Positions 5,790 through 40,318 of a DNA stretch of 64,000 nt are shown piece by piece. Position numbers and translations under genes: made by a program. Source of the stretch: a bacterium (GTDB lineage: Bacteria > Bdellovibrionota_C > UBA2361 > RFPC01). The stretch is from NCBI GenBank assembly GCA_009926305.1, contig RFPC01000005.1, positions 7,649 through 71,648 of the forward strand. The letters run 5' to 3'. The notes under the pieces were generated by a model that searched no databases, had not been told where the DNA came from, and saw only the letters and a program-made list of their open reading frames with translations. The stretch's first letter is position 1; each line of letters opens with the position of its first letter.

Positions 5790-5929
5790 CCTTCAGGTCC
5801 CGCTGACAACACCTTCAGGTCCCGCTGACAACACGTCGAGCCTTGCTCGCACGAGAACATCGAGCCTTGCTCGCACGAGAACATCGAGCCTTGCTCGCAC
5901 GAGAACATCGAGCCTTGCTCGAAGGAGAA
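5790..5929. repeat. Two adjacent tandem repeat families: 22 bp x2 (ccttcaggtcccgctgacaaca), then 24 bp x4 (catcgagccttgctcgcacgagaa)
   Basis: Direct sequence repeats in the divergent HiPIP/htrA intergenic region, 60-200 nt upstream of the HiPIP start. Confidence 0.9.
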
Positions 5930-6195
5930 TGATTTCAGCTTTCAGTAGCAACAGTAAGACGCATCGAGCTCGCCTTCCTTTCACTTGCTATAGTTTTAGC
6001 ATGGTGGAGCAAGATAGCAACTTTTAGCATATGAAATATCAGGTGGTTATGGAGATTCTTCATTCTCAACTGGTGTTAATGGTCATTGCTCAGCTGATGC
6101 TAGCTCTTAGCGGGCTGCCGGAATAACATCATGAATAAATCCCATGTAAAAACGTCAAATAGTCGTTTAGGATACACGCTCTCCCGCTTTTAGGA

Positions 6196-7827
6196 TTGAT
6201 GAACATGCTCTACTATTCTCCAACTATGAATTCTTGTTCCCAACACATTCAGCAGACCTCCCGAGTGTCACCCTCCTCCCGAGTGTCATCCCGAATAGTC
6301 GACCGATGTATTGGCTCGTCGATTGACTCAAACAAAGGCTCGGGTCGAAAAATAGGACCGGCATACTTCGGGCTCATTTTTTCTTTTCTCTTCACAACGC
6401 TCTGCTGCGCAACTCCTGGCTTCGCCCAGGAACAAGAGCAAGCATTGCAATATGCACAGAGTCTCTCTCGAGCCTTCGAAAGCGTCGCTACTACCATAAC
6501 GCCAGCGCTTGTTAATATTCGCGCCGTTTCAAAACCAGCAGCAACGCAAAATCTTCGCGGAGACAACAACGAACCGTCGCCTCTCCCTCCAGGGATTCCT
6601 GCCCCGTTTCGTGACTTTTTTGAACACTTCGGGAAGCAACCTCCGTTTAACGGCGACACGACTCCTCAACAAGGGTTAGGATCAGGAGTAATCGTGGACT
6701 CAGAGGGGCACATTCTTACCAACAATCACGTAATAGCGAATGCAGATGAGGTCTCCGTTCGCCTCTCCGATGGACGGTCATTCGATGCAACAATTGTAGG
6801 TGCCGACAAGAGAACAGATCTCGCAGTAATCAAGATAGATGCGCCGGAACTCATTCCGGCTGCACTGGGAGACTCTGACCATCTCAAGATTGGAGAATGG
6901 GTTGTTGCTGCAGGCACTCCGTTTGGACTTGAGAACACGATTACCGCTGGAATTGTCAGCGCAAAGGGTCGTTCAATCCTGGGCGGAAACTCTTATGAAG
7001 ACTTCATTCAGACCGATGCTGCCATCAATCCAGGCAATAGTGGAGGCCCGCTCGCAAATCTTAATGGTCAGGTAGTAGGTATAAACACCGCAATATTCTC
7101 TCGCTCAGGCGGATACATGGGGGTTGGATTTGCAATCCCTATCAATATGGCTCGACAAATCATGCAAAGTCTCATTACCGAGGGGAAGGTGGTTCGGGGC
7201 TGGTTAGGAGTGGTCATTCAAGAGCTATCCAAAGAACTCGCGGAGTCATTTCAATATAACGACACCAAGGGAGCTCTCGTTTCCGAAATCGCCGAGGATG
7301 GCCCGGCTGCGAAGGGCGGTCTTCGACAGGGTGACATCATCACAGAGTTTAATGGGAAACAAATTACCTCGGTCAATGACTTGCGCAATCTCGTTGCAGC
7401 GCAACGTCCAGAGACGAGAGTTGCAATTACTCTCATTCGCGATGGAAAGCAGAAACAGATACGGCTTACACTTGGGGAACTTCCGAATAATATTGAGCAG
7501 CCTGCTTCCCTCGACAAAGATGACTCGGCACAACCTGACTATCAGTCTTCGCTCGGCATCCACGTAGAGCCGCTAACTGATCAGTTACAACAACAACTCA
7601 GATCCAGAACGAAAACGGGAGTGGTGGTGACCCGTGTGGAACCTTCAAGTGCTGCTGCCGAGGCTCATATTCGGGTAGGAGATATTATAAAAAGTATTGA
7701 TGGTGAACCGATAACAACTATCAAAGAGTTTCAGAAACTGCTCGAAGCAGTTGACCTCAAGAAGGGAGCACGCGTGCTTTTAGAAAGTGGGGGCATTGAT
7801 CGCTTCGTCTTCATCCGGGAAAAGTAA
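6196..7827 (+). CDS. htrA: Periplasmic serine endoprotease HtrA/DegP/DegQ family (trypsin-like domain plus two PDZ)
   Basis: Catalytic triad context HILTNNHV...DLAVIKI...GNSGGPL followed by two PDZ-like regions. The N-terminal start is uncertain (TTG 6196 or ATG 6199/6205) because the hydrophobic segment lies about 60 aa in. Confidence 0.88.
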   Translation: MMNMLYYSPTMNSCSQHIQQTSRVSPSSRVSSRIVDRCIGSSIDSNKGSGRKIGPAYFGLIFSFLFTTLCCATPGFAQEQEQALQYAQSLSRAFESVATTITPALVNIRAVSKPAATQNLRGDNNEPSPLPPGIPAPFRDFFEHFGKQPPFNGDTTPQQGLGSGVIVDSEGHILTNNHVIANADEVSVRLSDGRSFDATIVGADKRTDLAVIKIDAPELIPAALGDSDHLKIGEWVVAAGTPFGLENTITAGIVSAKGRSILGGNSYEDFIQTDAAINPGNSGGPLANLNGQVVGINTAIFSRSGGYMGVGFAIPINMARQIMQSLITEGKVVRGWLGVVIQELSKELAESFQYNDTKGALVSEIAEDGPAAKGGLRQGDIITEFNGKQITSVNDLRNLVAAQRPETRVAITLIRDGKQKQIRLTLGELPNNIEQPASLDKDDSAQPDYQSSLGIHVEPLTDQLQQQLRSRTKTGVVVTRVEPSSAAAEAHIRVGDIIKSIDGEPITTIKEFQKLLEAVDLKKGARVLLESGGIDRFVFIREK

Positions 7828-9815: not shown

Positions 9816-11006
9816 TTATGCCACATCGCGAGAAGATTGTGCCCGGACTTCCACTCGCCCCTCAAGGAGATCAGTAGTAGCAACTTGAGAGAGCTGCTTT
9901 ACGGCCGTTGCAAGATCCCGAAATGTTAATTGAGCCTGTGCCTTGACGGCTAATACATCTCCATCGGGAATACATCCATCTCTCACTCTTCTCTTTAGAG
10001 CAATCTGAAACATTCCAAGGCAATACCCCATATTATGTATATAGGCTCGAAAGTTGACATCCATCGGCGTCTCACTTGAAAGCGCGCTAAAATGTTCGTC
10101 TAACTGATAGGAGGTGTCTCGCAAACTCTCGAGCATTGCATTCGCTTGGATTGGGGGGCTTTCCCGCTTTGCTCGCCGTCCAAAACCAATCGGATCTGAC
10201 GGATGCTCACTGAGCATATCGATAAAACTCAACAAGTGTTGCACCATGCTCGATGCCGTCTTTTGAACTGCAGGGAGCACACATGCTCGAAGCTCCTCCT
10301 GACGCTCAAACATCCGAGTAAAGAGAGAATCTTCCTTTATACTGAGGATGAGTGTGCCTTTTTCGGATGCTAACGGATGAACGGCAAGCTCAGCCTGAAC
10401 TCGAGAACTCAAGAGTCGAGATGCCACCTCAAGTGCTCCTGTTGCAAGCACGGCACGTAACTCTAAAAGTTCAAACGCTAGCGGTTCAATATAATCATCC
10501 GCTATACAGCCCTGGTCATACGAAGCTTCCTCCATGATGCAAATCGCCTGTTCAAGCCGTTGATGGATATGCCCATACGCCTCGAGTTTGACCTCCTCTG
10601 GCTCAGCCGAGGCAAGCTCGCTCTCTAGGAGCATTTTCATCGCTCGCAGGGAACTGCTTAATGTATCGGTGATAACCTCTCGGTGCTCAGACTCATCAGA
10701 TGGTGGCACATGAAATCCAATCTTCTTGATCTCATCCACGCACTCATTTAAAAAAATCCCAATCACATCTCGTGTGGCAAATGCTGCTGTCGTAAAGTCT
10801 GTGAACGAATTTCGTATATTTGCTATTCCCTGAAGACGGGATTCCAGCACTCCTCGCCCCGCGACGATCTCAGCGCGCTGCTCGCTTGCCCCACGTGGTG
10901 TATCATTCATGGCGCTTGCAAGGGGCTCAGTCTTCGCCTGTTGGCTTTTACTACGAGATGCTTTTTGTGCTTTTTGCGTAGCCTCGCTACAATTTTCGTT
11001 TTTCAT
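9816..11006 (-). CDS. Hypothetical protein (K/S/Q-rich disordered N-terminus, otherwise helical; no recognisable domain)
   Basis: 396-aa ORF with coding-like composition. No motif recognised. Confidence 0.5.
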   Translation of the reverse strand: MKNENCSEATQKAQKASRSKSQQAKTEPLASAMNDTPRGASEQRAEIVAGRGVLESRLQGIANIRNSFTDFTTAAFATRDVIGIFLNECVDEIKKIGFHVPPSDESEHREVITDTLSSSLRAMKMLLESELASAEPEEVKLEAYGHIHQRLEQAICIMEEASYDQGCIADDYIEPLAFELLELRAVLATGALEVASRLLSSRVQAELAVHPLASEKGTLILSIKEDSLFTRMFERQEELRACVLPAVQKTASSMVQHLLSFIDMLSEHPSDPIGFGRRAKRESPPIQANAMLESLRDTSYQLDEHFSALSSETPMDVNFRAYIHNMGYCLGMFQIALKRRVRDGCIPDGDVLAVKAQAQLTFRDLATAVKQLSQVATTDLLEGRVEVRAQSSRDVA

Positions 11007-11478: not shown

Positions 11479-13080
11479 ATGGAAGGGAATGGTCTCAGCA
11501 AAAATGAGGGTCAAAACGATCATATCGCTCAGTGTGATTACGCACCCTACGTCACCCGACATCAAGAACTCCTCCAACAAGCCCTTCATCCGATTGATGC
11601 CAGCGCACTTGAACGACATATTGCGCGCGGGAAGCTCCCGGTTCGCACTCGTATTGATGAGTTGATAGATGCCGGAAGTGCATTTTTAGAACTTTCTCCT
11701 TTGGCAGGATACGAGCTCTACGGGGATATTCCTTCAGGAGCAGGAATCGTAACAGGAATTGGTCAGGTGATGGGACGACCCGTCATGATTATTGCAAATG
11801 ATGCGACTGTTAAGGGTGGTACGTATTTTCCAACAACGGTAAAAAAACACCTACGTGCTCAAGATATTGCTTTTGAGAATCGTCTTCCCTGCATTTACCT
11901 CGTTGATTCGGGTGGTGCTTATCTTCCAAAGCAAGACGAGGTCTTCCCCGATCGACTGCATTTTGGTCGCATCTTTTTCAACCAGGCGCGCTTGAGTGCG
12001 GAGCGCATTCCACAAATTGCATGCGTCATGGGTTCTTGTACAGCTGGGGGAGCCTACGTTCCAGCGATGTCCGATCAGGTAATTATGGTTGAGGAGCAAG
12101 GCACTATATTCCTAGGCGGCCCACCTCTCGTAAAAGCAGCAACAGGAGAGGAAGTGAGTGCGGAGGACCTCGGCGGCGCTCATGTTCATGGTACAATCAG
12201 TGGAGTCTCTGACTATACGGCCAAGGATGATTACGAGGCCCTCAAAATGGTTCGAGAACTCGTGATGCACTTTGAACCAGACTCTCGTTGGGAGATTCGT
12301 GCAAAATCAACCGCGCCTCTTCATTCTCCAACTCTTTTACCTACTCTTGTTCCAACCGATCGTAAAAAACCGTTTCCGATGCGTGAGGCTCTCGGGCACA
12401 TACTCGATGGTGGCTCACTTAGTGAATTTAAGCGAGATTTTGGGAATACGCTGATTACTGCCTTTGCACGCATCGAAGGATATCCTGTTGGCATAATAGC
12501 GAATGATGGAATTCTCTTCTCAGAGAGTGCGCAGAAGGGAGCCCATTTCATTGAGCTCTGCTGCCAGCGAAAGATTCCGCTGTTGTTCATCCAAAACATA
12601 GTGGGCTTCATGGTCGGCAAAGAGTACGAGCACGGAGGGATTGCGAAACATGGAGCAAAACTTGTTCATGCGGTAGCGAATGCGAAAGTGCCAAAACTTA
12701 CGGTGGTCGTTGGCGGCTCTTTTGGTGCGGGCAACTACGCCATGTGTGGCAGAGCGTATGATCCACGTTTCCTTTTCCTGTGGCCCAACGCTCAGACCTC
12801 TGTCATGGGTCCTGAACAAGCAGCAACAGTACTTACGAACGTAAAGCGAGACTCTTCCCTGAAGAAGAATGGAAAAGTAGATGAAAAGGCTCTCGATGCT
12901 TTTTCCCGTGAAATTTTAGAGCAATATGAACATCAAGCCGACGCTTATTATTCAACAGCGCGTCTTTGGGATGACGGAGTGATTCTTCCGCAAGATACCA
13001 GACGAGTCTTGAGTCTTGCCCTGGGCGTAGTCACGCGACATGAACCTGAAGAGAGCACGTTTGGCGTTTTTAGAATGTAG
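11479..13080 (+). CDS. Acyl-CoA carboxylase carboxyltransferase beta subunit (methylcrotonyl-/propionyl-CoA carboxylase family)
   Basis: Two carboxyltransferase halves. GAGGGGGA RBS 7 nt before ATG 11479; the TTG at 11458 is an alternative start. Confidence 0.88.
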
Positions 13081-29617: not shown

Positions 29618-30424
29618 ATGAGTGAAGATACCCCGCAGGATGACCAAGAGGGTTTATCCATCGAAGAAGCAAACGCACTTGTCGAGGAACATCGAGGCTG
29701 GGCTGAGAGTATAGCTCGGTCGGTTGCTCGTGGTTGGAACCTTGACTGGCAAAATGACGGACTCGATGGAGCTGCGATGGAGGCTCTGATCTTTTGCTCG
29801 AGACGGTTTAATCCAGAGCGTGGCATCCCGTTTCGTGGCTATGCAAGACGAAGAATACATGAAGCCTCTACTGAAGCAGCCCGAGTATCAAAAGGCTGGA
29901 CACGCTCGGGGTCTGATACACAGTTTGAACGACTTGCTAAAGAGGTATCGATTGAACTTTTTGAACTCTTTCCCGAACTTCGCAGTGGAGCTATTCCTAT
30001 GTCGCTTGACCAAGAGGAAGGCGATAAGGCAATGCGCGCGAGCATCAGACAACTCTTAATCGGCGCAACTCTCGTCACCACGCGACAGGGGCTCGCCTCA
30101 GCTTCGCTCGATGATATCGTTGATACGAAACGAATGGTGACCTTCTTAGCGCATCTGGAAGTAATTCATCAAATAATCATATGGCGAATGTATTGGCATG
30201 GGGATTCAATGAGAGCAATCGCATCCGAGTGGGAAATGGACGAGCTGAATGTAATCCGAGAACATAAGGCCCTTGTCGACCATTTACAGAGGGCAATCGA
30301 AAAAAACAGCTCCTTTGAACCGCTAAAAGTCCGACCTGCACTCAGGCCGCTCTCTATTGAAATGAAACAAAGAAAGCAGGCGGGCCCCTTTACAGAACTC
30401 TATGCGCAAGGACAGAAAACGTAA
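29618..30424 (+). CDS. Second sigma-70-family sigma factor, FliA/group-3-like
   Basis: Region-2-like segment (RFNPERGIPFRGYARRRIHEA) and a region-4 HTH (MRAIASEWEMDELNVIREHKALVDHL), 268 aa. Confidence 0.72.
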   Translation: MSEDTPQDDQEGLSIEEANALVEEHRGWAESIARSVARGWNLDWQNDGLDGAAMEALIFCSRRFNPERGIPFRGYARRRIHEASTEAARVSKGWTRSGSDTQFERLAKEVSIELFELFPELRSGAIPMSLDQEEGDKAMRASIRQLLIGATLVTTRQGLASASLDDIVDTKRMVTFLAHLEVIHQIIIWRMYWHGDSMRAIASEWEMDELNVIREHKALVDHLQRAIEKNSSFEPLKVRPALRPLSIEMKQRKQAGPFTELYAQGQKT

Positions 30425-30497
30425 TGGCCTTTACGCCTCAGGGAAATATCAAAAACCAGTAAGGGAAAAAATCCAGAATGACTGTAGGAAAACAAAA

Positions 30498-30848
30498 ATG
30501 AGCGATGAAAAAGACAAGAAAAACGTCAAGGGAATCAGTAAAACACAGAAGACCACTTCCGTATCAAAAGTTGATAACATTGAAGAGGTAAAGAAAGTTG
30601 GAAAAACAACTGGTGTAAAACGCTCCGGCAAAACTCCGCAGGCTGGCGACAACCTGCAACGCCTGCGATTTGAAGACCGCGAGAAACTTTTAGGAATGGT
30701 TGATGAAGAAGCAAAAAACCTATTCCGCTCAAGCAAGTTGCCAGAGGAGCAAAAACGCCTTATCCGAGAAGCAGTAAAAATGGCGATTGATTCAGCACTT
30801 GTTGAGGAAGATGATACCAAGAAGACAAAAGAGGACGAAAAGAATTAA
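30498..30848 (+). CDS. Lysine/glutamate-rich small protein (possible histone-like/nucleoid-associated or secreted protein)
   Basis: AGGAAA RBS 7 nt before ATG 30498. Highly charged, low-complexity 116-aa product. Confidence 0.4.
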   Translation: MSDEKDKKNVKGISKTQKTTSVSKVDNIEEVKKVGKTTGVKRSGKTPQAGDNLQRLRFEDREKLLGMVDEEAKNLFRSSKLPEEQKRLIREAVKMAIDSALVEEDDTKKTKEDEKN

Positions 30849-30911
30849 TGCACGAGATGCTCCTTGCAGAAACGGCGAGAATTCAACGTTCACAAAAAAA
30901 GAGGATCGGCA

Positions 30912-31448
30912 TTAGGAAGTCTTTGAAGAACCGCCTGTTAGCCGTTCCTCGAAACGCAGCACCTGAGCTTCGTATAGCTGCCGAAGCTCAGGTCGCATTC
31001 GCTCACTAGCAGCTAGTCGATCTGAAACTTCTCCCAGATATGTTCCCCCAGTCTGAAAGTCTTTTAATTGAAAATGCGCCAAGACGAGGAATAACAAGGC
31101 TTCCATCGAAGAGTTCCGTAATTCAAGAGCTCGATGAGCAGCCGAGATAGTCTCCCCGTAATCTTCCCTCATCAAAGAGGCATACGCTATTACCAGCCAT
31201 GCATTTACATGCGTCGGCTCTATCGACACGAGCCCTCTGGCGACTCTCTCAGCAGTGGCAATCTCTCCGCTTTCTATAAATATTCGACTCAGGGAATAGA
31301 GTGCATCCAGCTCTGTTGTGGAATAACCATGGCGAACAATCGCTCGATCCCCCCGAGGCGAGAGTGCTTTTGACGATTCCATCGGTTGATTACCACCACT
31401 TACTTCCTCATCCGAAATAGTGGCCTCGGACTTGTTCTCATTTGCCAT
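30912..31448 (-). CDS. TPR-repeat protein resembling class II type III secretion chaperones (SycD/LcrH/Scc2-like)
   Basis: Three TPR-like helical pairs in about 178 aa. Lies at the distal end of the sct export-apparatus operon. Confidence 0.55.
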   Translation of the reverse strand: MANENKSEATISDEEVSGGNQPMESSKALSPRGDRAIVRHGYSTTELDALYSLSRIFIESGEIATAERVARGLVSIEPTHVNAWLVIAYASLMREDYGETISAAHRALELRNSSMEALLFLVLAHFQLKDFQTGGTYLGEVSDRLAASERMRPELRQLYEAQVLRFEERLTGGSSKTS

Positions 31449-31707
31449 GATCATCTTCTTGTAAAGCAATCCAATCAATCGCAATCTTTAACATATCACG
31501 CTCATCACGCCTCTGTCGCTCTGATTCTCCCATAGTGACCCGCGAATTACTTGCGCCCTCCACCTCTTGCTCGACCCGTTCCATTCGCGCAAGTAACGCT
31601 GCACGTAACTTTGGAAGCTCACCAGCATTCTTGCCTTGCGGGACGAGCGCCAACAAGGGGAGTCGTGTTTCATCATGAAACATGAGTTCCTCAATTCGAC
31701 TTTTCAT
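31438..31707 (-). CDS. Hypothetical 89-aa charged helical protein inside the T3SS operon
   Basis: ORF between the 4-TM protein and the TPR chaperone, overlapping the chaperone start. Confidence 0.35.
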   Translation of the reverse strand: MKSRIEELMFHDETRLPLLALVPQGKNAGELPKLRAALLARMERVEQEVEGASNSRVTMGESERQRRDERDMLKIAIDWIALQEDDHGK

Positions 31708-31750
31708 CTTCTTCCCTTTGAATTACCGATTCGCAGTATTCTTTTTAATC

Positions 31751-32293
31751 TTAGCTATCACTTGGCCCCTTCAGAAAGGACTTTTGTATAAACACAAGAA
31801 GAATATTTAAAAATCCTAAACTTACCACCAAGATCATAGCAACTAAAAACAGATAGGAGTACTCTAGGATTTCGCCTAAATCCCCGTCAGACCGATATAA
31901 AAGTGACTCTTGAATGAGCTTGGGGAAAAGAAAATAGACTGCTGCAAAAAAAGCTGAAATGAACACTCCACTGAACAGGAAGTACGCTCCTAAGAGAAAG
32001 AACGTGCTCCAATAGGTGCGTGACTGACTCTCTCCTGATGACCAAATAAAAGTATGAGCAGCTTTAGAAAACAGGACTATTGGGACAATTAGTAAGGGAA
32101 GAGCAATGACCAACACTATCTCTCGACCACATGCTGATAAACACTCTGCAAGATGACCCTCTAGACACGGCTTTATGGTGAGTGAGAGCTCTTTGAGGAG
32201 AGCCTGATAAACGAAAGGGGAAAAGCAAAAAAACGCCACTGAGCAGAGTGTCAGTGTTGCTACGGCATTCCTAAAAGCTGATTCAGACTTCAC
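31751..32293 (-). CDS. 4-TM membrane protein occupying the SctU position but lacking SctU/FlhB motifs
   Basis: Four hydrophobic helices. No FSxK..NP..G.KR loop and no NPTH cytoplasmic domain. Confidence 0.45.
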   Translation of the reverse strand: MKSESAFRNAVATLTLCSVAFFCFSPFVYQALLKELSLTIKPCLEGHLAECLSACGREIVLVIALPLLIVPIVLFSKAAHTFIWSSGESQSRTYWSTFFLLGAYFLFSGVFISAFFAAVYFLFPKLIQESLLYRSDGDLGEILEYSYLFLVAMILVVSLGFLNILLVFIQKSFLKGPSDS

Positions 32294-32308
32294 TCGATTA
32301 TTATCCTA

Positions 32309-32926
32309 TTAACCGGGCAGTAATAGCTCGTGGAGAAAATATTGGCTTATCGATTGACAAGAAATGGCCAGAAGCAAGAGCACCAGAGGAACAACTGCAA
32401 TCTGATACGTGATGGAAAAGCTAAGCTCTACTCTATTTCTTCTTACTATTAGGGGGATACTCACGAGGTACACAATGAAAGCGAGAAGTGCGTATACAAG
32501 TACATAGGCACAACCCACAAGAATGCCCCACTTCAGAACCATTGAAGTGAAATATGAAAATACAGAGAGAAGAACTTCGGCACGGTGCCGCATGTATATC
32601 TCCACAATGCCATGGAGCACGTCTTCACTGAGCAGCTCCGGCAGTAAGAACATCATCACGACACACGGAAGCCACCTGTAACACATGTGATCTTCAAAAA
32701 GGTCCCGAAGTCCAACCCTCTCGAAAAGACAACTTATAAGAAGCCAAGTGAGCGGGATAGCACACAGTGCAACGACCGCACACAATAACCCCAAAAAGGA
32801 AAAGGGGACCTGAATACTCACGAGGAGAAGACATAGGACAAGACACGGCGCTGCAATGACCGTCATGACTGGAGAGAGGACACAACCGAGAAAGAGTCCA
32901 GCCCCTGCTATTGCAAACTCAGTCAT
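32309..32926 (-). CDS. sctT: Type III secretion export apparatus protein SctT (FliR family), short form
   Basis: Polytopic 205-aa membrane protein immediately downstream of sctS. The call rests on synteny and topology. Confidence 0.5.
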   Translation of the reverse strand: MTEFAIAGAGLFLGCVLSPVMTVIAAPCLVLCLLLVSIQVPFSFLGLLCAVVALCAIPLTWLLISCLFERVGLRDLFEDHMCYRWLPCVVMMFLLPELLSEDVLHGIVEIYMRHRAEVLLSVFSYFTSMVLKWGILVGCAYVLVYALLAFIVYLVSIPLIVRRNRVELSFSITYQIAVVPLVLLLLAISCQSISQYFLHELLLPG

Positions 32927-32954
32927 CCTACGACACCCTGCTCACAATCCGAGC

Positions 32955-33200
32955 CTATCCTACCACCAGGTAGAGCGTTCTCGTCTCTTCGATAAAAAAA
33001 TTAATCATAGGGGCTCCCAGCAAAATTAATGCAAAAAGCGCCCCGATAACTCTTAGTGCATAGTTTAAGGTGTAATCTTGGATCGAGAAGAAGCCCGTTA
33101 AGAGATAGCCCAATAGCCCAAATCCAACGATACATCCCGTTACGGGAACCCCCACTATGAGAAACATCCGAATTATCGTTGAGAATACATTCAATTCCAT
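32955..33200 (-). CDS. sctS: Type III secretion export apparatus protein SctS (FliQ family)
   Basis: 81 aa with two TM helices. SIQDYTLNYALRV matches the FliQ QINEMTLSFIPKI block, and ETRTLY matches YVRTLF. Confidence 0.7.
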   Translation of the reverse strand: MELNVFSTIIRMFLIVGVPVTGCIVGFGLLGYLLTGFFSIQDYTLNYALRVIGALFALILLGAPMINFFIEETRTLYLVVG

Positions 33201-33205
33201 GACAT

Positions 33206-33868
33206 TTATCCTGAAATGTAATCTCCGGCTAGCCTCTGGATTAACATCCCCCAACCATCGACAACCAGAAAAAGAAGAAGCTTCATTGGCAATGAAAAAC
33301 ATAAAGCTGGCAACTGTGTCATTTGCAACAACTGCATCACGTGCACCACGAGGAGATCAATGATCACAAATGGCAAAATGAAGAGAACTCCAAGCTGAAA
33401 TGCGCCCTCGAGCTCATCCAAGAGAAAACTTACAAGTACAGGATAAAACCCTGACTGCTTCCCTATCTGCTCAGGGTTCGGTGCCGATTCCGTCATTCCC
33501 GCACTACTCTTCACTGGCGCTTGAAACTTATCTCGAAGTTCAGACTGCAGCCGTGATATCTCCTCCCTGCGTTCGGGATCCGTTCTTTGCTCAAGAAACG
33601 GCACAATACGTTGCTCAAGCATACTCTCTCTTTGTTCTGGAGCAGAGAGGGTTGTCATCAGATTACCTACAGGGACAACAGAATCAACCACAAAGAGAGC
33701 GAGAACGGCTGAAAAAATCATAACAACCACGCCCACGGTAGCGCCATGAAACCCGAGGCCAATACGAAAAATTTGAAGAGTCGTAAAACTCTTTAAGAAT
33801 CCCCCCGTAAGAAGGACTAAAATGATGAGAGCTATCTGATAACTCGCTGCGTTTGCATCAATTCCCAT
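33206..33868 (-). CDS. sctR: Type III secretion export apparatus protein SctR (FliP family)
   Basis: C-terminal PFVIIDLLVVHVMQ...LPMKLLLFLVVDGW matches the FliP signature PFLVIDLVVASVLM...LPFKLLLFVLVDGW. Confidence 0.85.
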   Translation of the reverse strand: MGIDANAASYQIALIILVLLTGGFLKSFTTLQIFRIGLGFHGATVGVVVMIFSAVLALFVVDSVVPVGNLMTTLSAPEQRESMLEQRIVPFLEQRTDPERREEISRLQSELRDKFQAPVKSSAGMTESAPNPEQIGKQSGFYPVLVSFLLDELEGAFQLGVLFILPFVIIDLLVVHVMQLLQMTQLPALCFSLPMKLLLFLVVDGWGMLIQRLAGDYISG

Positions 33869-33975
33869 GAAGGGTATTGTGAAGAAAAGAACGTCATTTC
33901 ACTAGCCGCTATTTTCAGACGCTCATCGACTGGGAAGACCGTTCGAACGGTCTCTTTCATGATTATCTCTATCCG

Positions 33976-35022
33976 CTATTGCTCTCCGATGACCTTTACA
34001 AAGAGCTGAGACTCATAGGCAACCAGAATCCCATGTCCGACCTTTTTATGCGCGACAGAAATATGAATTTTAGGCTGTTTCGCAGAAGATGCGAGCTTAT
34101 GAAGCGCACCCGGCTGGGAAAGAAGAGCACTCTCAGCTTTTGAAAGTTCTATCTCCTCTAGCTCAAACGTTACAGAAGTCATTCCATCAGCATTCGCGAT
34201 GCCTTCGTTCGCTTCTCCTCTTGCTTGAAAAACGAGTTGATCATCGTGAGTGAAAAGTGATCCCTCAAGCCATGGCTGCTCATCCATGAGCAACACGACT
34301 GAATCGCTACCACCAAAATTGATCGGAAGCGTCTTGCCAGGAACAAGGCTATCACCTACCTCCGAGGGGAGAAATGCAGTGCTCCCAAAAACAACCCTCA
34401 CACGTGCCCTCTCCTCAGCAGAAGGTATTCCTTTTAATATTTGTGTAATCCACAATTGATCGAGCCTATCCATCAGCCCTTGGCTTATTCCTATAACAAG
34501 CGAAAGCTCCTCGCCATTCAGCCGAAAATCAAGCCGAACGCCACCAACGCAAGCCTCTGAAGGAGCACTAACATCACTTTGAAAGCGGAAGACGCCCCCT
34601 TCGTTCGCACTCCAAGATGACGCAAGGCTCGTCATGAATCTTCTTGCAAAATATTCTATCATCAGATGTTTAGCGGTAAGGGATGCGGCTGGAGCTTGAG
34701 TTCTCGTAATACATTCAGACAAGGACCTCGGAATAAAAAGAGAAACAGTCTCTCCATCAAGACTCCCATGAAAGGCGACTCCCTCTCCGGCATCGAGATC
34801 TATGAGCGGAGTAGTTCCGCACTTTTCATGATGTATATCGAAGGTGTGAAAAAGCGGTAGCCAATGAGCAGTAAATCCAGGAAACCATACCTCTGGTTGG
34901 GACCGAAGAAAGCCTCTTGAGAAACGGATATCCTCAGCACTTACCGCTGATAGCTCAGTTAACGGATCCCATGCCCGAAAGTCACTCTCCCCGTACTGTT
35001 GTTCATCCGACGCAATCGACAT
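33976..35022 (-). CDS. SctQ-like cytoplasmic-ring component (C-terminal SpoA/FliN-like domain); SctL not excluded
   Basis: C-terminal approximately 70 aa resemble the SpoA fold pattern (ELSKAESALL...IHISVAHKKVGHGILVAYESQLFVKVI). Lies directly upstream of sctR as in yscQRST. Confidence 0.4.
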   Translation of the reverse strand: MSIASDEQQYGESDFRAWDPLTELSAVSAEDIRFSRGFLRSQPEVWFPGFTAHWLPLFHTFDIHHEKCGTTPLIDLDAGEGVAFHGSLDGETVSLFIPRSLSECITRTQAPAASLTAKHLMIEYFARRFMTSLASSWSANEGGVFRFQSDVSAPSEACVGGVRLDFRLNGEELSLVIGISQGLMDRLDQLWITQILKGIPSAEERARVRVVFGSTAFLPSEVGDSLVPGKTLPINFGGSDSVVLLMDEQPWLEGSLFTHDDQLVFQARGEANEGIANADGMTSVTFELEEIELSKAESALLSQPGALHKLASSAKQPKIHISVAHKKVGHGILVAYESQLFVKVIGEQ

Positions 35023-35051
35023 GAATTACTCTTCTAATATTCTCTAAACCC

Positions 35052-35312
35052 TCATTCCTGCAAACGTTCATCCTTCACATCAGCAGTTCGACTTTGCAAC
35101 TCTTCTAATGCACGTCTCAGCGCGTCGCCCGCTAAAATGTTCCTGAACTCTGGCGATGCGGCCACAAAATCTTTCGCTGCCTTTGCCAGCTCTTCACCTG
35201 CTAACGAATCATTGTCAAGATAAAGCTCGGCCTCATGTCCATCGAGCAGCACTGCTATTGCTACCATTGCTCGCTGATGCGCTGAAAGGGAACGAAATTT
35301 CTCGAGCTTCAT
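35052..35312 (-). CDS. Hypothetical 86-aa helical protein coupled to sctJ
   Basis: 4-nt overlap with the sctJ stop. No motif recognised. Confidence 0.35.
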   Translation of the reverse strand: MKLEKFRSLSAHQRAMVAIAVLLDGHEAELYLDNDSLAGEELAKAAKDFVAASPEFRNILAGDALRRALEELQSRTADVKDERLQE

Positions 35313-36217
35313 AGTTGCGACCTCCGATCATCATCACGAACATCGAACGGTTGTAACTGTAAGGGCTCGCCGTTACGGAACGAATCAAGGGAAGACATTT
35401 GGCCCCGAGAGGCAGTGGTAATGACGCCAAACCAATATCCCCCGAAAATCCCTGCAACAGCAACAAGCACCAAGACACCAAGAAGTGAGAGCACGATAGC
35501 TGGATAATCTGCTGCTGCCACTTTCCAGCCAAAGAATAATTCAACCCAATCGAACTTCTCTCCGTCGAGGCTAGCCTCACTAACTCCCTCCCCCTCTGGC
35601 TCATGAGAAAAAATCGCCAGATGAATCCTGTCGGCCTCTAGCTCTGGAATAATTGACTGTAGTAGGGCCTGTATTTCCGAGCGAGGAGCGAGAGAGGCAT
35701 CTTTTACTTTCAAAACGACCGATGCTCCGCGATCTTCCTTCACGACTTGAAGATCATCTGTATTCGTCTTCTTTGCCGGTCTCTCAGAATGGAGTCGCAA
35801 CACGACTCGAGCAGAGGCGACATCAGGAAGATTCTCTAAGAGGGACTCTATCTGTAGTGAACGCGCAAAATCTAAGCGCACCGCTTCTACCATGCGCGAA
35901 TCCGGAAGAAATGAACTGGTCGAGAGGGTGGAGAGAACTTCACTGCGAGAGGACTCAGGAATTCCCTTCTCGTGCAAGATTCGGATGGCCGTAGAGAAAT
36001 CTCTGGGAGCAACCTCCACCAAGAAATTGCCAACTCCTCTTCTCTTCCGAGTGAATGAAGCTTCAATGCCGTTCTTGCTCAGCACTGCTACCACTTCTCG
36101 AGCTTGGTCTTGAGAAATGTCCTCAGCAACGGGAACGTCCGAACAGCCCATCATCAAGAGGCTCATGACCACAGCAGCAAAACAATAAACACACAGTCTT
36201 TTATTCACGTGAGTCAT
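35309..36217 (-). CDS. sctJ: Type III secretion inner-membrane ring lipoprotein SctJ (YscJ/PrgK/EscJ family)
   Basis: Lipobox LLMMGC followed by a YscJ-like N-domain (ISQDQAREVVAVLSKNGIEA...AIRILHEKGIP) and a C-terminal TM helix. Confidence 0.8.
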   Translation of the reverse strand: MTHVNKRLCVYCFAAVVMSLLMMGCSDVPVAEDISQDQAREVVAVLSKNGIEASFTRKRRGVGNFLVEVAPRDFSTAIRILHEKGIPESSRSEVLSTLSTSSFLPDSRMVEAVRLDFARSLQIESLLENLPDVASARVVLRLHSERPAKKTNTDDLQVVKEDRGASVVLKVKDASLAPRSEIQALLQSIIPELEADRIHLAIFSHEPEGEGVSEASLDGEKFDWVELFFGWKVAAADYPAIVLSLLGVLVLVAVAGIFGGYWFGVITTASRGQMSSLDSFRNGEPLQLQPFDVRDDDRRSQL

Positions 36218-36262
36218 GGGGTTTTCCTCTAAGCCTCTCGAACGTAACGTGAGAGCGGTATC

Positions 36263-37375
36263 CTAACCTCGCGGTAAAGATGGAATAAGCGTCACCAGAA
36301 ACTCTTGCTCACCAAAACGTACCCAGTCTCCATGACCGAGTATGATGGCTTCTTCTTCTTTCCGATAGATGGCATCACCTTCCCGACGGACAAAAACACC
36401 TGTCTCACTCATGAGATCCTGTACAAGCAATCCATACTCATCAGAAAGTGTCATGAGCGCATGTGGTGTTGAAACAGAGGGATGATCAAGGACGAAATCT
36501 TTATCTTTCAGCGGTGTGCGACTGACAAAGAACTTCCCCTCTCTCAGCTCGTAGCCTACGCCGTTGGCAACCGAAAAACTGACAAGCCACCCATGCAATA
36601 ACCCTTGATTATCTTGAGCTTGCTGAGCTGCTACAGCTCCCCTAGCAGAGACGCCCTGTTCTCCCATCGCTCCATCTTGGTTTCTGCGCGGCGCTGATTC
36701 CTCTCGCCGCCGTCCTTGTCTCCTTTGTTCGCGCCACATACGAGACGCCTCTCCTTCAAAGGTTGCTTCAGCTTCATGAGAAGACTCATCGGGTGTCTTT
36801 TGTTTCGCTCTGCCACCGAAAGAGAGCCCTTTCTTGGACGAGCCTCGCTCCATTCTTACTCGCGGAGCAACAGATTCAGTTGATTCTTCCACTCGCGGCT
36901 GACGCGGCGCTTGAGTCACTAACGGTGCCTCATCATCATCGACAACATCATCGAAATCCTCTTCTAAAAACCCTGCTTCGTCCCCCGCCTCGAAAATGTC
37001 AGAGTCCATTTCCTCCACCAGGTCTTCCTCTTCCTCCTCCTGAATCGCTTCTGGATAATCACTCTCTTCTCTTATCGGCTCACTCGCAGCAAGCTCCTCG
37101 TCCTCTTCATCTTCAAAATCCTCAAGATATGCTCCAAGCGGATCATCAAAATCATCCTCAGCTTCAGCGGGAGCGCTTTCAAGGGCAGACTCAGGAGTTG
37201 AAAAGTCATCTTCCTCTGCACCTGATGCCAGCTCATCCTCTTCGAGTCCAGCTCCACACATTCTGCAACGAGTCGACACCGCCGGCACAAGACTCCGACA
37301 CGATGGACAACGAACAAAGGTTAATTCAGTGCTATCAGTGGCCATTTTTTTCTCCTTTAGATAAAAACCCTTCAA
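36263..37375 (-). CDS. Zinc-ribbon / acidic-linker / C-terminal FHA-domain protein
   Basis: CPSCR-x11-CRMCG zinc ribbon, about 130-aa D/E-rich linker, and a C-terminal FHA (GxxFVSRTP...HALM...LLVQDLMSETGVFV). Coupled by 4 nt to the upstream gene. Confidence 0.7.
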   Translation of the reverse strand: MKGFYLKEKKMATDSTELTFVRCPSCRSLVPAVSTRCRMCGAGLEEDELASGAEEDDFSTPESALESAPAEAEDDFDDPLGAYLEDFEDEEDEELAASEPIREESDYPEAIQEEEEEDLVEEMDSDIFEAGDEAGFLEEDFDDVVDDDEAPLVTQAPRQPRVEESTESVAPRVRMERGSSKKGLSFGGRAKQKTPDESSHEAEATFEGEASRMWREQRRQGRRREESAPRRNQDGAMGEQGVSARGAVAAQQAQDNQGLLHGWLVSFSVANGVGYELREGKFFVSRTPLKDKDFVLDHPSVSTPHALMTLSDEYGLLVQDLMSETGVFVRREGDAIYRKEEEAIILGHGDWVRFGEQEFLVTLIPSLPRG

Positions 37376-38706
37376 AAAAGTAACGAAACAACAAGCATTG
37401 ACGCTACAAGTAATGCGAGCGCTACAAGAATTCCTGTTACGAGAACTCCTACCCGTTCATACGAACCAAGCGCTAAGAATCCTGAAACAAAACGATTCGG
37501 TCTCGTATTCATCTCGAACTGGGAGAGCGCCTCTTGAGGAACTCCAGGGGCAGCCAATGTTTGGCGGCTCGGCACTACTTCTCGCGAATCTCTCTCTTCC
37601 CCCTCTTTCTGAGTAAAGGTAGAAGGAGCACCATTGCTCTCAAGGAACATCTCTTCATGCTCTTCCGAAAAACAGATGGCAACGGTAATACCACCGCCAA
37701 AATTCAACACACACGGGCTATTCTCGAGGTGAACGGATTCTCCTTGCGTTAGCACCCCACCATCATACGCGAGTCCATTCATACTGAGGTCCGTGATGAG
37801 AATATCCTCAAGGCTGATAAATTCAATAGTTGAGTGTTTCCGCGACACATGCGGCGCACCAAGCCAAAGATCACTTGAGGGATCTCTGCCAATCCTGAGG
37901 GGCTTTCCTTCTTGAATCAGCAATTTCTGCGGACGAGCGACTTCTGAGAGTGACATCAGCAGCGGATAGCGTTCCTCTGGAAGTATCTGCAGATCAACCT
38001 CTGCAGTTTGACGGGGCACTGAGACTTGCTCTTCTTGATCGATTGCATACGCAACAATGCTTCTCCCAATGATAATTGGCTTTCCAGGAGGAATCTGATT
38101 TTTCCCTGAAACTTGCTGTGCTCCCACAAAGGTTCCATTTGTAGAACCGACATCCTCAATAAAAAATTTCCCAGCTTCATACGTCACATTGGCATGCCTT
38201 GCAGATACATCAGGAGCGTCCAAGCGAAGTGCATTATCTCGATCTCTACCAATCGTCAGCGGAAGATCTGGCGAAAACGAAATAGTGACTGGAGCATCTC
38301 CGCTTACCGCCAGCGCAGGGAAATACGGCGCCGGGTTTTCACACGCTCTGCGTAAAATGTGAGCTGCTACCTTATCAAGGGCATCTCCTCGCATAGAGCA
38401 AAGGTCAAGATCGAGTGCAGTGATAGAAAGCTGTATGGAGCCCAGGTTCAGGCTCGCTTCCCCATCATATTCCCGATCGAGGTAAGCAGGGGTTTCAACT
38501 CGCAAGTGAGAATGCGAAATAAGCGGCTGAGTTCGGAAAGTCCGGCCAATACCTCTATACAGATGAAGTTCATACGGCAGTTCAGCAAGTTCATCGATTA
38601 GCACGTGGGCGTAGTCGCTGGCTCCAATGACCGCGTGTGACCTGCGGACGAAGACCGTTTCAGTATCGGCCCCATCACCATTAAAAGTTATTTCTAACGA
38701 AAACAT
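37372..38706 (-). CDS. Triple-FHA-domain protein with C-terminal TM tail anchor (SctD-like cytoplasmic module, atypical)
   Basis: Three FHA cores (e.g. LTIGRDRDNALRLDAPDVSARHANV...EDVGSTNGTFV and LRIGRDPSSDLWLGAPHVSRKHSTI...DLSMNGLAYDG) and a terminal hydrophobic helix (VLVTGILVALALLVASMLVVSLLF). Confidence 0.75.
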   Translation of the reverse strand: MFSLEITFNGDGADTETVFVRRSHAVIGASDYAHVLIDELAELPYELHLYRGIGRTFRTQPLISHSHLRVETPAYLDREYDGEASLNLGSIQLSITALDLDLCSMRGDALDKVAAHILRRACENPAPYFPALAVSGDAPVTISFSPDLPLTIGRDRDNALRLDAPDVSARHANVTYEAGKFFIEDVGSTNGTFVGAQQVSGKNQIPPGKPIIIGRSIVAYAIDQEEQVSVPRQTAEVDLQILPEERYPLLMSLSEVARPQKLLIQEGKPLRIGRDPSSDLWLGAPHVSRKHSTIEFISLEDILITDLSMNGLAYDGGVLTQGESVHLENSPCVLNFGGGITVAICFSEEHEEMFLESNGAPSTFTQKEGEERDSREVVPSRQTLAAPGVPQEALSQFEMNTRPNRFVSGFLALGSYERVGVLVTGILVALALLVASMLVVSLLF

Positions 38707-39013
38707 ACGGTGTCTACTCTCGACCAGAATGGCCGTAAACTCATGGATTTAAGCCCCAAGAATTCAAAGTTTTAATAAACCATCATTCGCATCGAACAGA
38801 AAGGTTATGGCAAAGCAAGAACAAGAGGAATCGTACAAAAAATTCTTAGGAAAAATGAGTTGATTCTAAGAAAGTTCTGTAGCTAACCTCCTGATTATAG
38901 AACATGGTTTATTTTTCTGGCTCCGACTTGGAGAAACTCATGCACTCCTTCATACCATGCCTGCATCTAAAAAGTTTCGAGGTATTTCGTTTTGAGTTAC
39001 AAAGGCGCCTGCC

Positions 39014-39382
39014 ATGACGAGACACAAGAAGATTCTCATTATCGATGACGACATGATCGCTCTAGACATTGTCGATCTTCTCTTCGAAGAGCATGGCTTT
39101 GAAGTTATTCGCAGCTCAGATGGCTGCCGCGCAATCTCTGCTATCGATGACACCGCACCAGACATCGTTTTGGTTGACTTGATGATGCCAAAGATGAGTG
39201 GTCAAGAGTGCATTCAAGCACTGAGAGCCAAAGGGCTAAACGTTCCAATCGTCGCCTTCACCGCTATTGATGATCCTGAAGTGCATGCGGATGTCGAAAC
39301 CCTCGGGGGGAGCCTCGTATTAACGAAGCCATGCAAACCATCACTCCTCTTGAAGGAGGTCGAAGCTCTTCTTGACGCTTGA
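39014..39382 (+). CDS. Single-domain response regulator (CheY-like receiver)
   Basis: KILIIDDD...DIVLVDLMMP...PIVAFTA receiver signature, 122 aa. Confidence 0.85.
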   Translation: MTRHKKILIIDDDMIALDIVDLLFEEHGFEVIRSSDGCRAISAIDDTAPDIVLVDLMMPKMSGQECIQALRAKGLNVPIVAFTAIDDPEVHADVETLGGSLVLTKPCKPSLLLKEVEALLDA

Positions 39383-39432
39383 GGCTAAAAAGGCTGTTCT
39401 CTCTTCTCTCAGTTACCCCAACCCTACGTGTT

Positions 39433-39765
39433 CTATTCATCCCAAGAGACCTGAAGCGCTATTCTCCCTATAAGAATTTGATCGCCATCCTGCAGCGGGT
39501 AAACTTTTCCCTCTTCAAGCTGCACTGCTCCATTCAAGATTGTGCCATTCAGACTCCCCATATCGATAATCGAGAGTTCATCACCCGACATCTCAATGGT
39601 GGCATGTTTCCGAGAAACCCGAGCATCCTCATCAATCGCGTCCAAATCTATTTCTGGAAACACTCCGGCAGTCGGATCCCACCGTCCAATGAGATTTTGA
39701 CCCTCTCGAATTGGATACTGCTTCTTTTTGCGCTTGCCATCCCATATCTGTAAATAAACGGACAT
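39433..39765 (-). CDS. Standalone FHA-domain protein
   Basis: FHA core LIGRWDPT...VSRKHATIE...IIDMGSLNGT, 110 aa. Confidence 0.75.
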   Translation of the reverse strand: MSVYLQIWDGKRKKKQYPIREGQNLIGRWDPTAGVFPEIDLDAIDEDARVSRKHATIEMSGDELSIIDMGSLNGTILNGAVQLEEGKVYPLQDGDQILIGRIALQVSWDE

Positions 39766-39990
39766 GCCCCCATTGTCGGACTTTCAGACGAGAGAGGCAA
39801 AGATTTTTCGACTCCAATCAATTCGCAATAGGCATCAACATTTGCAACCCTACGGTAGAGTGCCTTCTTTCTTCTCCCTTTTCTGCTTCCTCTGAGCCGG
39901 GAAAATCATCCTATAAAAAAGGCTATGGGGGCTCATCAGAGGCGAAACAACAGCATCTGAGCGGCTGCCCATTTAAAAGGTGTGTTATCT

Positions 39991-40017
39991 CAATTAGTTA
40001 ATCATATTTGCTAATTG
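39991..40017. promoter_or_regulatory. Perfect 7-bp inverted repeat CAATTAG-N13-CTAATTG in the rng upstream/leader region (candidate operator)
   Basis: Palindrome arms read directly from the sequence, AT-rich core. Function inferred. Confidence 0.25.
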
Positions 40018-40318
40018 TCCTGAAAAAGGGTCTGATATCATACTGGTGTTTCAGGCAAAGACCCCGTGTCTAAGCGTACATGTACGTGCGTAGCTTTGAA
40101 CTGACTTAAGAGCTTCAAACCGACTTACGCCTCAAGCGAAGTGGCAAGCTTCTGGTCAAACCCTACGGCACGGAGAGTGCCTGAAACGAGTTTTCAGTTC
40201 TAAAATTTAGTTAACGATTGGGAGAGGCACCTCATGAGAGGTAGCAACTTCAACCAACAGAAAAGGCAATTCACTTCCCTCACGTTAGGGGCAGGCTATG
40301 CAGCAGCACGGTCGTGGC

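Follow-up and report, generated by a model that had tools for sequence, protein, structure and literature searches.

The SctD proteins found in type III secretion systems (T3SS), namely YscD, PrgH and MxiG, consist of one cytoplasmic FHA-like domain that lacks the phosphothreonine-binding residues, a central transmembrane (TM) helix and three periplasmic domains that build the ring. In the predatory, deltaproteobacterium-type Myxococcus xanthus an FHA-rich Tad-like system, Kil, works together with T3SS*, a T3SS that has neither a secretin nor a needle (PMC8460266, PMC12075869, PMC10433427). Secretin-less T3SS loci, including a short variant without SctD, are carried by Myxococcales (Abby and Rocha, PMC3459982), and according to a 2025 review, on 2012 data, the co-occurrence of Tad-like (Kil) systems and T3SS* appears to be confined to the Cystobacterineae (PMC12428579, PMC3459982). 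Here we describe a 64,000-nucleotide stretch of DNA (hereafter the window; contig RFPC01000005.1 of assembly GCA_009926305.1, positions 7,649 to 71,648 of the forward strand) from a bacterium of the Bdellovibrionota_C, in which two genes coding for FHA proteins, gene A and gene B, lie on the minus strand directly 5' of a sctJ-like gene.

Analyses of the window and of homologous loci indicated that the products of genes A and B are probably a pair of phosphothreonine-reader adaptors belonging to a deeply divergent T3SS-like inner-membrane export apparatus of an uncultured Bdellovibrionota clade. The parts of this apparatus are SctV, SctJ, SctQ, SctR, SctS, SctT and a shortened SctU without the cytoplasmic domain. 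The gene pair is real and conserved, and at present it is annotated merely as 'FHA domain-containing protein'. An earlier note on this DNA had reported a coupled pair of FHA genes, an observation that we confirmed in part, and had interpreted it as a split SctD-like module and a phosphothreonine-reading scaffold, an interpretation that as a whole found partial support.

Domain architecture of the two FHA proteins

Comparison of the gene A product with Pfam FHA gave an E-value of 8.8e-27 over two matched stretches. In the AlphaFold2 (AF2) model, which was built from 31 homologues and had a predicted local distance difference test score (pLDDT) of 82.5, beta-sandwiches occupy residues 1-100, 130-222 and 249-345 and are followed by a disordered segment (372-403) and a terminal helix (415-443); positions of all features are given in Table 1. 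Residue conservation was read from 31 aligned sequences sharing 28-74% identity. In the second domain (FHA2) G153, R154, S168, G191 and T192 were invariant while H171 and N190 were present in at least 90% of the sequences, and in the third (FHA3) G273, R274, S288, R289, H291, N310 and G311 were all invariant. Both domains are of the phosphothreonine-binding type, since they score above the gathering threshold of PF00498 and carry the GR, SxxH and NG signatures. The FHA3 region (269-344) gave a PDB profile match to Rad53 FHA1, and the top Foldseek match of the gene A model was EssC (5fwh, E 4.9e-7).

Of the three FHA domains that the earlier note had assigned to gene A, these two cores score while the N-terminal one was left unscored by every FHA model. 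The N-terminal domain had no Pfam match at E<=10 in 21 members and no PDB sequence match at E<=10, and the alignment revealed no GR/SxxH/NG pattern in it. Alignment with hhalign gave a probability of 0.6-0.7% for the N-terminal domain against FHA2 or FHA3, compared with 98% for FHA2 against FHA3. A third FHA domain recognisable by sequence was thus rejected, Pfam, the PDB profile search and hhalign all being negative, and the beta-sandwich fold of this domain is a prediction of the AF2 model alone. A profile of the domain searched against 1.84 billion representatives retrieved only 145 proteins, in all of which (145/145) it lies at residues 1-126 of a protein of 410-693 amino acids; gene A as a whole has 79 close homologue clusters. 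Judged from their sequences, the N-terminal domain of gene A and the zinc-ribbon motif of gene B define new, narrowly distributed families.

The tail anchor proposed in the earlier note for gene A was borne out by the AF2 helix at 415-443 and by a hydrophobic C-terminus in all homologues read, that is in 31 of the 31 aligned sequences and in a further 14 of 14 longer members. In the 14 long members the three domains recur, the low-complexity linker is longer and the TM helix stands at the extreme end, and the length of the disordered linker differs greatly between lineages. A periplasmic extension was absent from every gene A member read; all 14 long members and all 31 aligned sequences end at the TM helix, in agreement with the earlier statement that the periplasmic ring part appears to be missing.

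Genes A and B are not a split SctD. That proposal found no support as a statement of homology or membership, since the TM helix is terminal, periplasmic ring domains are absent and SctD-specific similarity was not detected. In contrast to SctD, gene A combines two canonical FHA domains with an unrelated N-terminal domain, a long disordered tether and a terminal TM helix, and has no periplasmic part; SctD carries its TM helix centrally, with periplasmic ring-building (RBM) domains after it, whereas the TM helix of gene A makes up its last 30 residues. No NCBIfam SctD model matches gene A, and specific similarity to SctD domains or models is likewise lacking. The match of gene A to Yop-YscD_cpl (PF16697) falls on the first FHA stretch, and since this family is also annotated on unrelated FHA proteins, e.g. 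ABC transporters and histidine kinases, we regard it as a clan cross-hit. What gene A does share with sctD is its co-encoding with sctJ and basal-body genes, as it lies between SctV and SctJ in the unsplit clusters described below.

This position raises the possibility that gene A, with or without gene B, is a structural stand-in for SctD, a non-homologous functional replacement forming a membrane-anchored outer ring around SctJ, with cytoplasmic FHA-type domains docking onto the SctQ platform and a periplasmic ring dispensed with because there is no secretin. Gene A, placed between SctV and SctJ in unsplit clusters, combines an FHA fold with a single TM helix, its N-terminal domain resembles the cytoplasmic domain of SctD in lacking phosphothreonine-binding residues, and no canonical SctD was found in any locus examined. 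The short T3SS locus of Myxococcales is a secretin-less precedent without SctD (PMC3459982). We nevertheless consider a stand-in of this kind unlikely. No member read has a periplasmic domain and thus no intermediate form is seen, FHA2 and FHA3 retain the canonical ligand-binding residues, the N-terminal domain matches nothing in Pfam or PDB, and an SctD-specific signal is absent, PF16697 cross-hitting unrelated FHA proteins. The TM helix stands at the extreme C-terminus past a disordered linker of very variable length, and an FHA array on such a tether is ill-suited to a fixed, rigid ring.

The gene B product was found to have the layout given in the earlier note, with a zinc ribbon, an acidic linker, a C-terminal FHA domain and no TM helix, except that the linker measures about 200 amino acids (residues 40-235; 30% D+E) and not about 130. 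The AF2 model shows a zinc-ribbon-like hairpin (pLDDT 88), disorder over residues 40-235 and an FHA sandwich at 245-355 (pLDDT >92). Across 33-45 sequences the N-terminal 32 residues, ELTFVRCPSCRSLVPA..RCRMCGA, hardly vary while the remainder of the protein diverges; the cysteines of the CPSC...CRMC pattern (C13, C16, C27 and C30) and the residues flanking them are invariant in 33 sequences, and the zinc ribbon is kept at all loci, the distant loci L002, L066 and L070 included. The C-terminal domain matches Pfam FHA at 3.7e-7 (30.9 bits against a cutoff of 20.7), with the GR arginine and the NG asparagine unconserved, and its Foldseek matches are generic FHA domains. In total, 449 homologues of gene B were found.

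The linker of gene B contains the short conserved motifs DPL[GS]xY, GLSFG and RVRQRT[MIL]S, the last of which is a candidate phospho-site or docking motif. RVRQRT[MIL]S is kept in most of the clade and in the most distant relatives (L066 13082-14245 and L070 16609-18024) and is lost in the subclade of the window.

The junction of the two genes differs from the 4-nt ATGA overlap previously claimed for it. Reading of the junction sequence revealed that gene A ends with ...VSLLF and a TGA stop at 37374-37372, and that the true start of gene B is the ATG at 37345, which opens MATDSTELTFVRCPSC... and lies 3' of an AAGGAG Shine-Dalgarno site, so that a 26-nt spacer separates the stop of gene A from the ATG of gene B. 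The TTG at 37375 is merely the start of the mechanical open reading frame (ORF) of gene B, 36263-37375. Across loci the gap between the two genes ranges from 3 to 195 nt with a median of 57, the sole outlier being 1066 nt in the distant locus L002, and no overlap occurs at any locus examined. Translational coupling of A and B via an ATGA overlap is ruled out by the spacer and by the absence of overlaps among loci. The only ATGA stop/start overlap in the operon is that of sctJ with the following 86-amino-acid ORF (35309-35312). The minus-strand genes after gene B are closely packed to about 30900, and a promoter and terminator scan of 30400-40300 returned a number of sites not above that of shuffled controls.

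Gene order, partners in relatives and proposed function

To compare gene order, one genome per species was scanned, which yielded 57 loci (numbered with the prefix L) whose order was determined from tblastn and iterated hidden Markov models (HMMs). Loci were taken as informative if the sequence downstream of gene A extended over 4.5 kb or more; these numbered 43, all from distinct species-level metagenome-assembled genomes (MAGs). Gene A is followed by gene B in 42, by SctJ in 41, by the 86-amino-acid ORF in 41 and by SctQ in 42 of these 43, which bears out the earlier claim of two adjacent FHA genes immediately upstream of sctJ and extends its co-occurrence with sctJ to other genomes. The order of the upstream half is ComEC, MreB, a GAF protein, RNase G, in some cases a small FHA protein, a response regulator and then gene A; downstream it continues with B, sctJ, the 86-amino-acid ORF, in most loci an ORF of about 120 amino acids, sctQ, sctR, sctS, sctT, the truncated sctU, an 89-amino-acid ORF and a TPR protein. 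The named homologues belong to MAGs of Bdellovibrionota, Bdellovibrionales and Oligoflexia, and the broader labels are Deltaproteobacteria, Pseudomonadota, one Candidatus Dadabacteria and plain 'bacterium'. Genes A and B also lie beside SctJ and SctQ in L062, L066 and L070, which span a G+C content (GC) of 37-64% and identities down to 25%, while the contigs of L064 and L065 end soon after gene B and show SctV, a kinase-like protein, A and B.

Analysis of these relatives revealed that the SctJ side of the cluster is one half of a supercluster whose further partners are TadZ, Flp, CpaB/RcpC, TadA, TadB, TadC, a Hanks kinase and a kinase-like protein with a TM helix and HEAT repeats; a PP2C phosphatase and an extra FHA protein were found in one genome. 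This complete genome, CP129486.1, the gene A of which is 43% identical to that of the window, carries both halves at separate loci (L061 and L069), indicating that in the clade of the window the supercluster is split in two and that the window contains the SctJ-side half. A complete module of kinase, PP2C and FHA reader is therefore encoded in the genome of L061 and L069, and L070 has two kinases together with A and B. The kinases at the head of the clusters are canonical Hanks kinases of 486-504 amino acids (Pkinase 3e-55 in L070 and 6e-53 in L069).

The second, kinase-like protein of about 830 amino acids is encoded directly upstream of gene A in L062, L064, L068 and L070, and in the first three of these its gene is preceded by FHIPEP and Tad genes wherever upstream sequence exists. 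It consists of a divergent kinase-like N-terminal domain, a TM helix and C-terminal HEAT repeats, and scored 33-34 bits on Pkinase against a cutoff of 31.7 in three members. The HRD and DFG motifs of the L064 protein are degenerate, so that it may be a pseudokinase. Besides SctJ, this is the only protein of the cluster with a large domain beyond the membrane.

The FHIPEP proteins scored 502-552 bits on SctV and 493-514 bits on FlhA, all below the equivalog cutoffs. In the low-GC lineage of L062 the FHIPEP protein beside the Tad genes (5717-7456) is degenerate, with 579 amino acids of which profile positions 97-185 alone match. The Tad parts, found in the relatives only, comprise AAA_31, Flp_Fap, two T2SSF proteins, an ATPase of the TadA family and CpaB, the last of which exceeded its NCBIfam cutoff (2.9e-39). 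No Tad secretin (RcpA/CpaC) was present in the stretches examined and the window has no Tad gene at all; an F1-type T3SS ATPase (SctN), SctL, a secretin (SctC), a needle gene and an SctD-type protein were found in no locus examined. In the most distant lineage, L066, an HTTM-domain membrane protein (11598-12944; Pfam 1.6e-7) is encoded between A and B.

The contiguity of a Tad module with A and B in L062, L064, L066 and L070 could mean that the pair regulates a Tad/Kil-like pilus, through e.g. TadA or TadZ, and that its adjacency to sctJ reflects nothing but a shared supercluster. The Kil clusters of Myxococcus are FHA-rich, and killing cannot proceed without KilD, one of their FHA proteins (PMC8460266, PMC10433427), and FHA proteins adjoin tad genes in B. 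bacteriovorus (bioRxiv 10.64898/2026.07.08.737194). The split genome makes this explanation improbable: there A and B stay with SctJ, SctQ and SctRSTU while a different FHA protein accompanies the Tad/kinase half, which speaks for a role of the pair in the T3SS-like part rather than in the pilus. In addition, A, B, sctJ, the 86-amino-acid ORF and sctQ stay together despite the loss of sctRSTU at some loci.

The reading of A and B as phosphothreonine-reader adaptors of the T3SS-like apparatus draws on an observed architecture, residue conservation, topology and synteny, and on the kinases and the phosphatase observed in relatives. The suggestion of the earlier note that a phosphothreonine-reading scaffold is attached to a T3SS thus gained strong contextual support from two intact reader domains, from kinases and a phosphatase in the system of relatives and from the strict linkage to SctJ and SctQ. 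Working from architecture and gene linkage only, we infer a mechanism in which a kinase of the system would mark threonines on one or more of its components. Gene A, tethered to the inner membrane by its last helix, would bind these marks via FHA2 and FHA3 on the flexible tether and would so concentrate the marked partners at the SctJ/SctQ platform. Soluble gene B would bridge further partners via its zinc ribbon, linker motifs and degenerate FHA domain, and PP2C would reset the switch. The outcome would be a kinase-gated assembly or activation, resembling that of PpkA/PppA/Fha1 in type VI secretion and of PknD/CdsD in Chlamydia. Putative in this scheme are the dependence of binding on phosphorylation, the targets themselves, the consequence for assembly and any part played in predation.

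A wider proposal, which we put forward tentatively, is that A and B mark a hybrid nanomachine in which a Tad/Kil-like pilus and a minimal, deep-branching T3SS-like gate form one contact-dependent apparatus of presumably predatory Bdellovibrionota. Such an apparatus might, with the same reserve, use TadA as the sole ATPase seen and a switch of Ser/Thr kinase, PP2C and multi-FHA proteins, and might represent a fusion of Kil and T3SS*, possibly an intermediate between flagellar export and injectisome.

Several observations weigh against the adaptor reading. The link to a kinase and a phosphatase comes from related genomes and not from the window; of the Ser/Thr kinase that the earlier note proposed to look for, canonical Hanks forms were found in related genomes, in one of them together with PP2C, while Pfam scans of 30 ORFs beyond the ten cluster ORFs detected no Ser/Thr kinase, PP2C or further T3SS gene in the 64-kb window. 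Phosphothreonine-binding residues are lacking in the FHA domain of gene B and in the N-terminal domain of gene A, and some functions of the pair may hence be independent of phosphorylation. All carriers are uncultured, and every T3SS part falls far short of the curated equivalog cutoffs, reaching between a third and a half of them. Of the 34 long loci, 11 lack sctRSTU (L001/L039, L012, L015, L018, L025, L028, L030, L034, L046 and L051, the eleventh being the distant L002), as called genes confirm for L001, and the T3SS-like gate may hence be dispensable or encoded elsewhere. These loci keep A, B, sctJ, the 86-amino-acid ORF, sctQ, the 89-amino-acid ORF and the TPR gene with the exception of L002, where A-like and B-like genes, the latter with the same zinc ribbon, stand beside RNase G and the response regulator and neither SctJ nor SctQ occurs within 10 kb of them. 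At some loci a protein of about 240 amino acids with one TM helix replaces sctRSTU.

On such grounds the T3SS-like genes could be taken for a decaying relic, with A and B being general signalling proteins whose adjacency is due to shared descent. The scores, which reach between a third and a half of the family cutoffs, the truncated SctU, the loss of sctRSTU, the degenerate FHIPEP of L062 and the presence of A and B without SctJ or SctQ in L002 all fit decay, and the flanking synteny with RNase G and MreB is conserved as well. Gene order and intact reading frames nevertheless persist across identities of 25-45% and a GC of 37-64%, and near-invariance is kept by the zinc ribbon, by the ligand-binding residues of the FHA domains and by the SpoA domains of SctQ, which renders a relic very improbable. 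The same argument was made by Abby and Rocha for the functioning of the Myxococcales system (PMC3459982).

Remaining genes of the cluster

The genes that follow the pair on the minus strand, and those that flank the cluster, are listed in Table 1. SctJ matched NCBIfam SctJ at 3.5e-23 with 82 bits against a cutoff of 162, and it is the SctJ model alone that matches. Pfam FliMN_C was found in 15 of the 15 SctQ family members tested (best 2.2e-15), as a tandem SpoA pair, and SctR scored 77 bits on NCBIfam yscR and 71 bits on fliP, the cutoffs of both being above 200. The SctU orthologue of L061 (15324-15956, 210 amino acids) carries Pfam Bac_export_2. SctU orthologues, whose N-terminus we take to contain an FlhB-type motif, end directly after the fourth TM helix, at ...RHRMT..E, so that the whole clade is without the cytoplasmic domain for autocleavage and substrate switching. 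The nine core T3SS genes as defined by Abby and Rocha in 2012 (SctC, J, N, Q, R, S, T, U and V; PMC3459982) are therefore incomplete: detection succeeded for SctJ, Q, R and S, the assignment of SctT is positional and SctU is truncated. SctV is encoded at a second locus in a genome of the same clade and next to the other genes in relatives, while SctN and SctC were found in no locus examined.

Table 1. Features of the cluster in the window and of the corresponding clusters in relatives
Feature	Position	Strand	Remarks
Gene A	37372-38706	minus	444 aa, tail-anchored, three beta-sandwich domains
Gene A N-terminal domain (residues 1 to ~105)	38392-38706	minus	family-specific 8-9-strand beta-sandwich (AF2)
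Gene A FHA2 (residues 130-222)	38041-38319	minus	canonical FHA, GR/SxxH/NG; best Pfam FHA stretch 151-214
Gene A FHA3 (residues 249-345)	37672-37962	minus	canonical FHA; second Pfam FHA stretch
Gene A C-terminal TM helix (residues 415-443)	37378-37464	minus	AF2 helix; preceding linker 372-403 pLDDT <50
Gene B	36263-37345	minus	360 aa; zinc ribbon and degenerate FHA joined by a disordered acidic linker
Gene B zinc ribbon (residues 8-35)	37241-37324	minus	ELTFVRCPSCRSLVPA..RCRMCGA
Gene B C-terminal FHA (residues 245-355)	36281-36613	minus	S-T-P-H kept; without GR arginine and NG asparagine
sctJ-like inner-membrane ring lipoprotein	35309-36217	minus	C-terminal TM, ~40-aa cytoplasmic tail; Pfam YscJ_FliF 1.1e-10
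86-aa protein, no known family	35052-35312	minus	start overlaps sctJ stop (ATGA); in 41/43 loci
sctQ-like, two C-terminal SpoA (FliMN_C) domains	33976-35022	minus	profile matches YscQ-C (3uep, 6.4e-5) and FliN
sctR/fliP homologue	33206-33868	minus	Pfam FliP 1.4e-25
sctS/fliQ homologue	32955-33302	minus	Pfam Bac_export_3 2.5e-5, weak NCBIfam FliQ/SctS; mechanical ORF, start probably ~33200
Multi-TM protein at sctT position	32309-32926	minus	5-6 hydrophobic segments, conserved place after sctS; no HMM match; position-only assignment
sctU/flhB, TM domain only	31751-32293	minus	180 aa, four TM
89-aa ORF and TPR protein	30912-31707	minus	TPR: NCBIfam SctY 9.5e-7, LcrH_SycD 6.6e-6, both sub-cutoff; ~30 loci
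CheY-like single-domain response regulator	39014-39382	plus	divergent from gene A; sequence read; most loci
Stand-alone 110-aa FHA protein	39433-39765	minus	Pfam FHA 6.1e-15; subset of loci
Sigma-70-family factor	29618-30424	plus	distal cluster end; NCBIfam sigma70-ECF 1.6e-7, FliA_WhiG 1.4e-5; ~10 loci
L061	CP129486.1, 109-130 kb		RNase G - FHA - response regulator - A - B - J - Q - R - S - T - truncated U
L069	CP129486.1, 1.54-1.56 Mb		PP2C - FHA - Pkinase - TadZ - Flp - RcpC - TadA - TadB - TadC - FHIPEP - Pkinase, then housekeeping
L070	1.87-Mb contig, Bdellovibrionota MAG		Pkinase - AAA_31 - Flp - Flp - RcpC - T2SSE - T2SSF - T2SSF - FHIPEP - Pkinase+HEAT - A - B - YscJ_FliF - 77 aa - 166 aa - FliMN_C - FliP - Bac_export_3 ...
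L066	ENA metagenome assembly ERZ15185791, 55-kb contig		T2SSE - T2SSF - T2SSF - FHIPEP - A - HTTM - B - YscJ_FliF - 67 aa - 155 aa - FliMN_C - FliP - 80 aa - 170 aa - 198 aa; tight packing, compact version
L062, L064, L068	Logan assemblies of public sequencing runs		kinase-like protein directly 5' of A
~830-aa kinase-like protein	L064 7327-9981; L070 12346-14865; L069 12216-14693; L068 1524-4010

The 86-amino-acid protein had no match among protein families or in PDB. A FliG N-terminal-like role as adaptor of the SctJ tail was considered for it and rejected, as the PDB profile search yielded no relevant match and hhalign against an approximate E. coli FliG sequence gave a probability of 0.1%. 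Between this ORF and sctQ most other loci have a second small ORF of about 120-166 amino acids, which is absent from the window and has no detectable family. The position of the two small proteins between sctJ and sctQ suggests an SctK/SctL-like role.

Counterparts of the response regulator at the same position in L002 and L061 carry Pfam Response_reg, and the location of this gene and of the 110-amino-acid FHA protein 5' of gene A suggests a second signalling input. The sigma factor at the distal end could be dedicated to the cluster. Beside it a lysine-rich ORF of 148 amino acids (30402-30848, plus strand) is conserved in about ten loci. The other ORFs scanned in the window code for housekeeping functions, a hybrid sensor histidine kinase and an HDOD protein; amid the housekeeping genes lies a 396-amino-acid ORF (9816-11006, minus strand) without a Pfam match.

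Comparison with known systems

The nearest functional analogues of the proposed switch are chlamydial PknD/CdsD, the Kil system that cooperates with T3SS* in Myxococcus, and the type VI set of PpkA, PppA and Fha1 (TagH), which joins a Hanks kinase of the membrane and a PP2C phosphatase to an FHA scaffold that gates the assembly of an envelope machine. The same triad of kinase, PP2C and FHA protein is encoded in CP129486.1. The NCBIfam TagH model matched the FHA part weakly (5.4e-17, below cutoff). In contrast to type VI secretion, the machine found here is T3SS-like and Tad-like, and its FHA proteins differ in having a tail anchor and a zinc ribbon. The chlamydial CdsD (CT664), which is associated with the kinase PknD, has the SctD-type TM helix and periplasmic region in the same polypeptide, unlike gene A; the two share only 19% identity, with a negligible margin over generic FHA domains. 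EssC/EccC of type VII secretion resemble gene A in that a membrane-bound part of the secretion machine has FHA domains in tandem, here N-terminal, on its cytoplasmic side.

The Myxococcus systems combine the same two kinds of machine in another arrangement. Kil and T3SS* are encoded at separate loci in Myxococcus, whereas in the relatives of the window the Tad-like and T3SS-like genes form a single supercluster. T3SS* has SctN, SctL, SctD and SctI and Kil has a secretin, while in the Bdellovibrionota loci examined no ATPase other than TadA was seen, SctU is truncated and a gene for SctD, SctN or a secretin is absent. The homology search with gene A retrieved no Myxococcus protein apart from generic FHA matches. 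No description of a Bdellovibrionota T3SS or of a Tad-FHIPEP cluster was found in the searchable literature, the coverage of which is incomplete and gives no proof of novelty.

The loci described here extend the co-occurrence of Tad-like and T3SS-like genes to another phylum, the Bdellovibrionota. How predators control a needleless T3SS* and couple it to a Tad-like pilus is open in Myxococcus, and the genetic linkage of readers, kinases, phosphatase, Tad genes and T3SS-like gate provides a compact, testable model of this coupling. The clusters also show how reduced a conserved T3SS-like gate can get, as they are without genes for the T3SS ATPase, SctD and a secretin and have a truncated SctU, and such a minimal gate bears on the evolution of injectisomes from flagella. 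An FHA scaffold gating an envelope machine is a known theme, which is here joined to an unusual minimal hybrid of T3SS-like and Tad-like parts.

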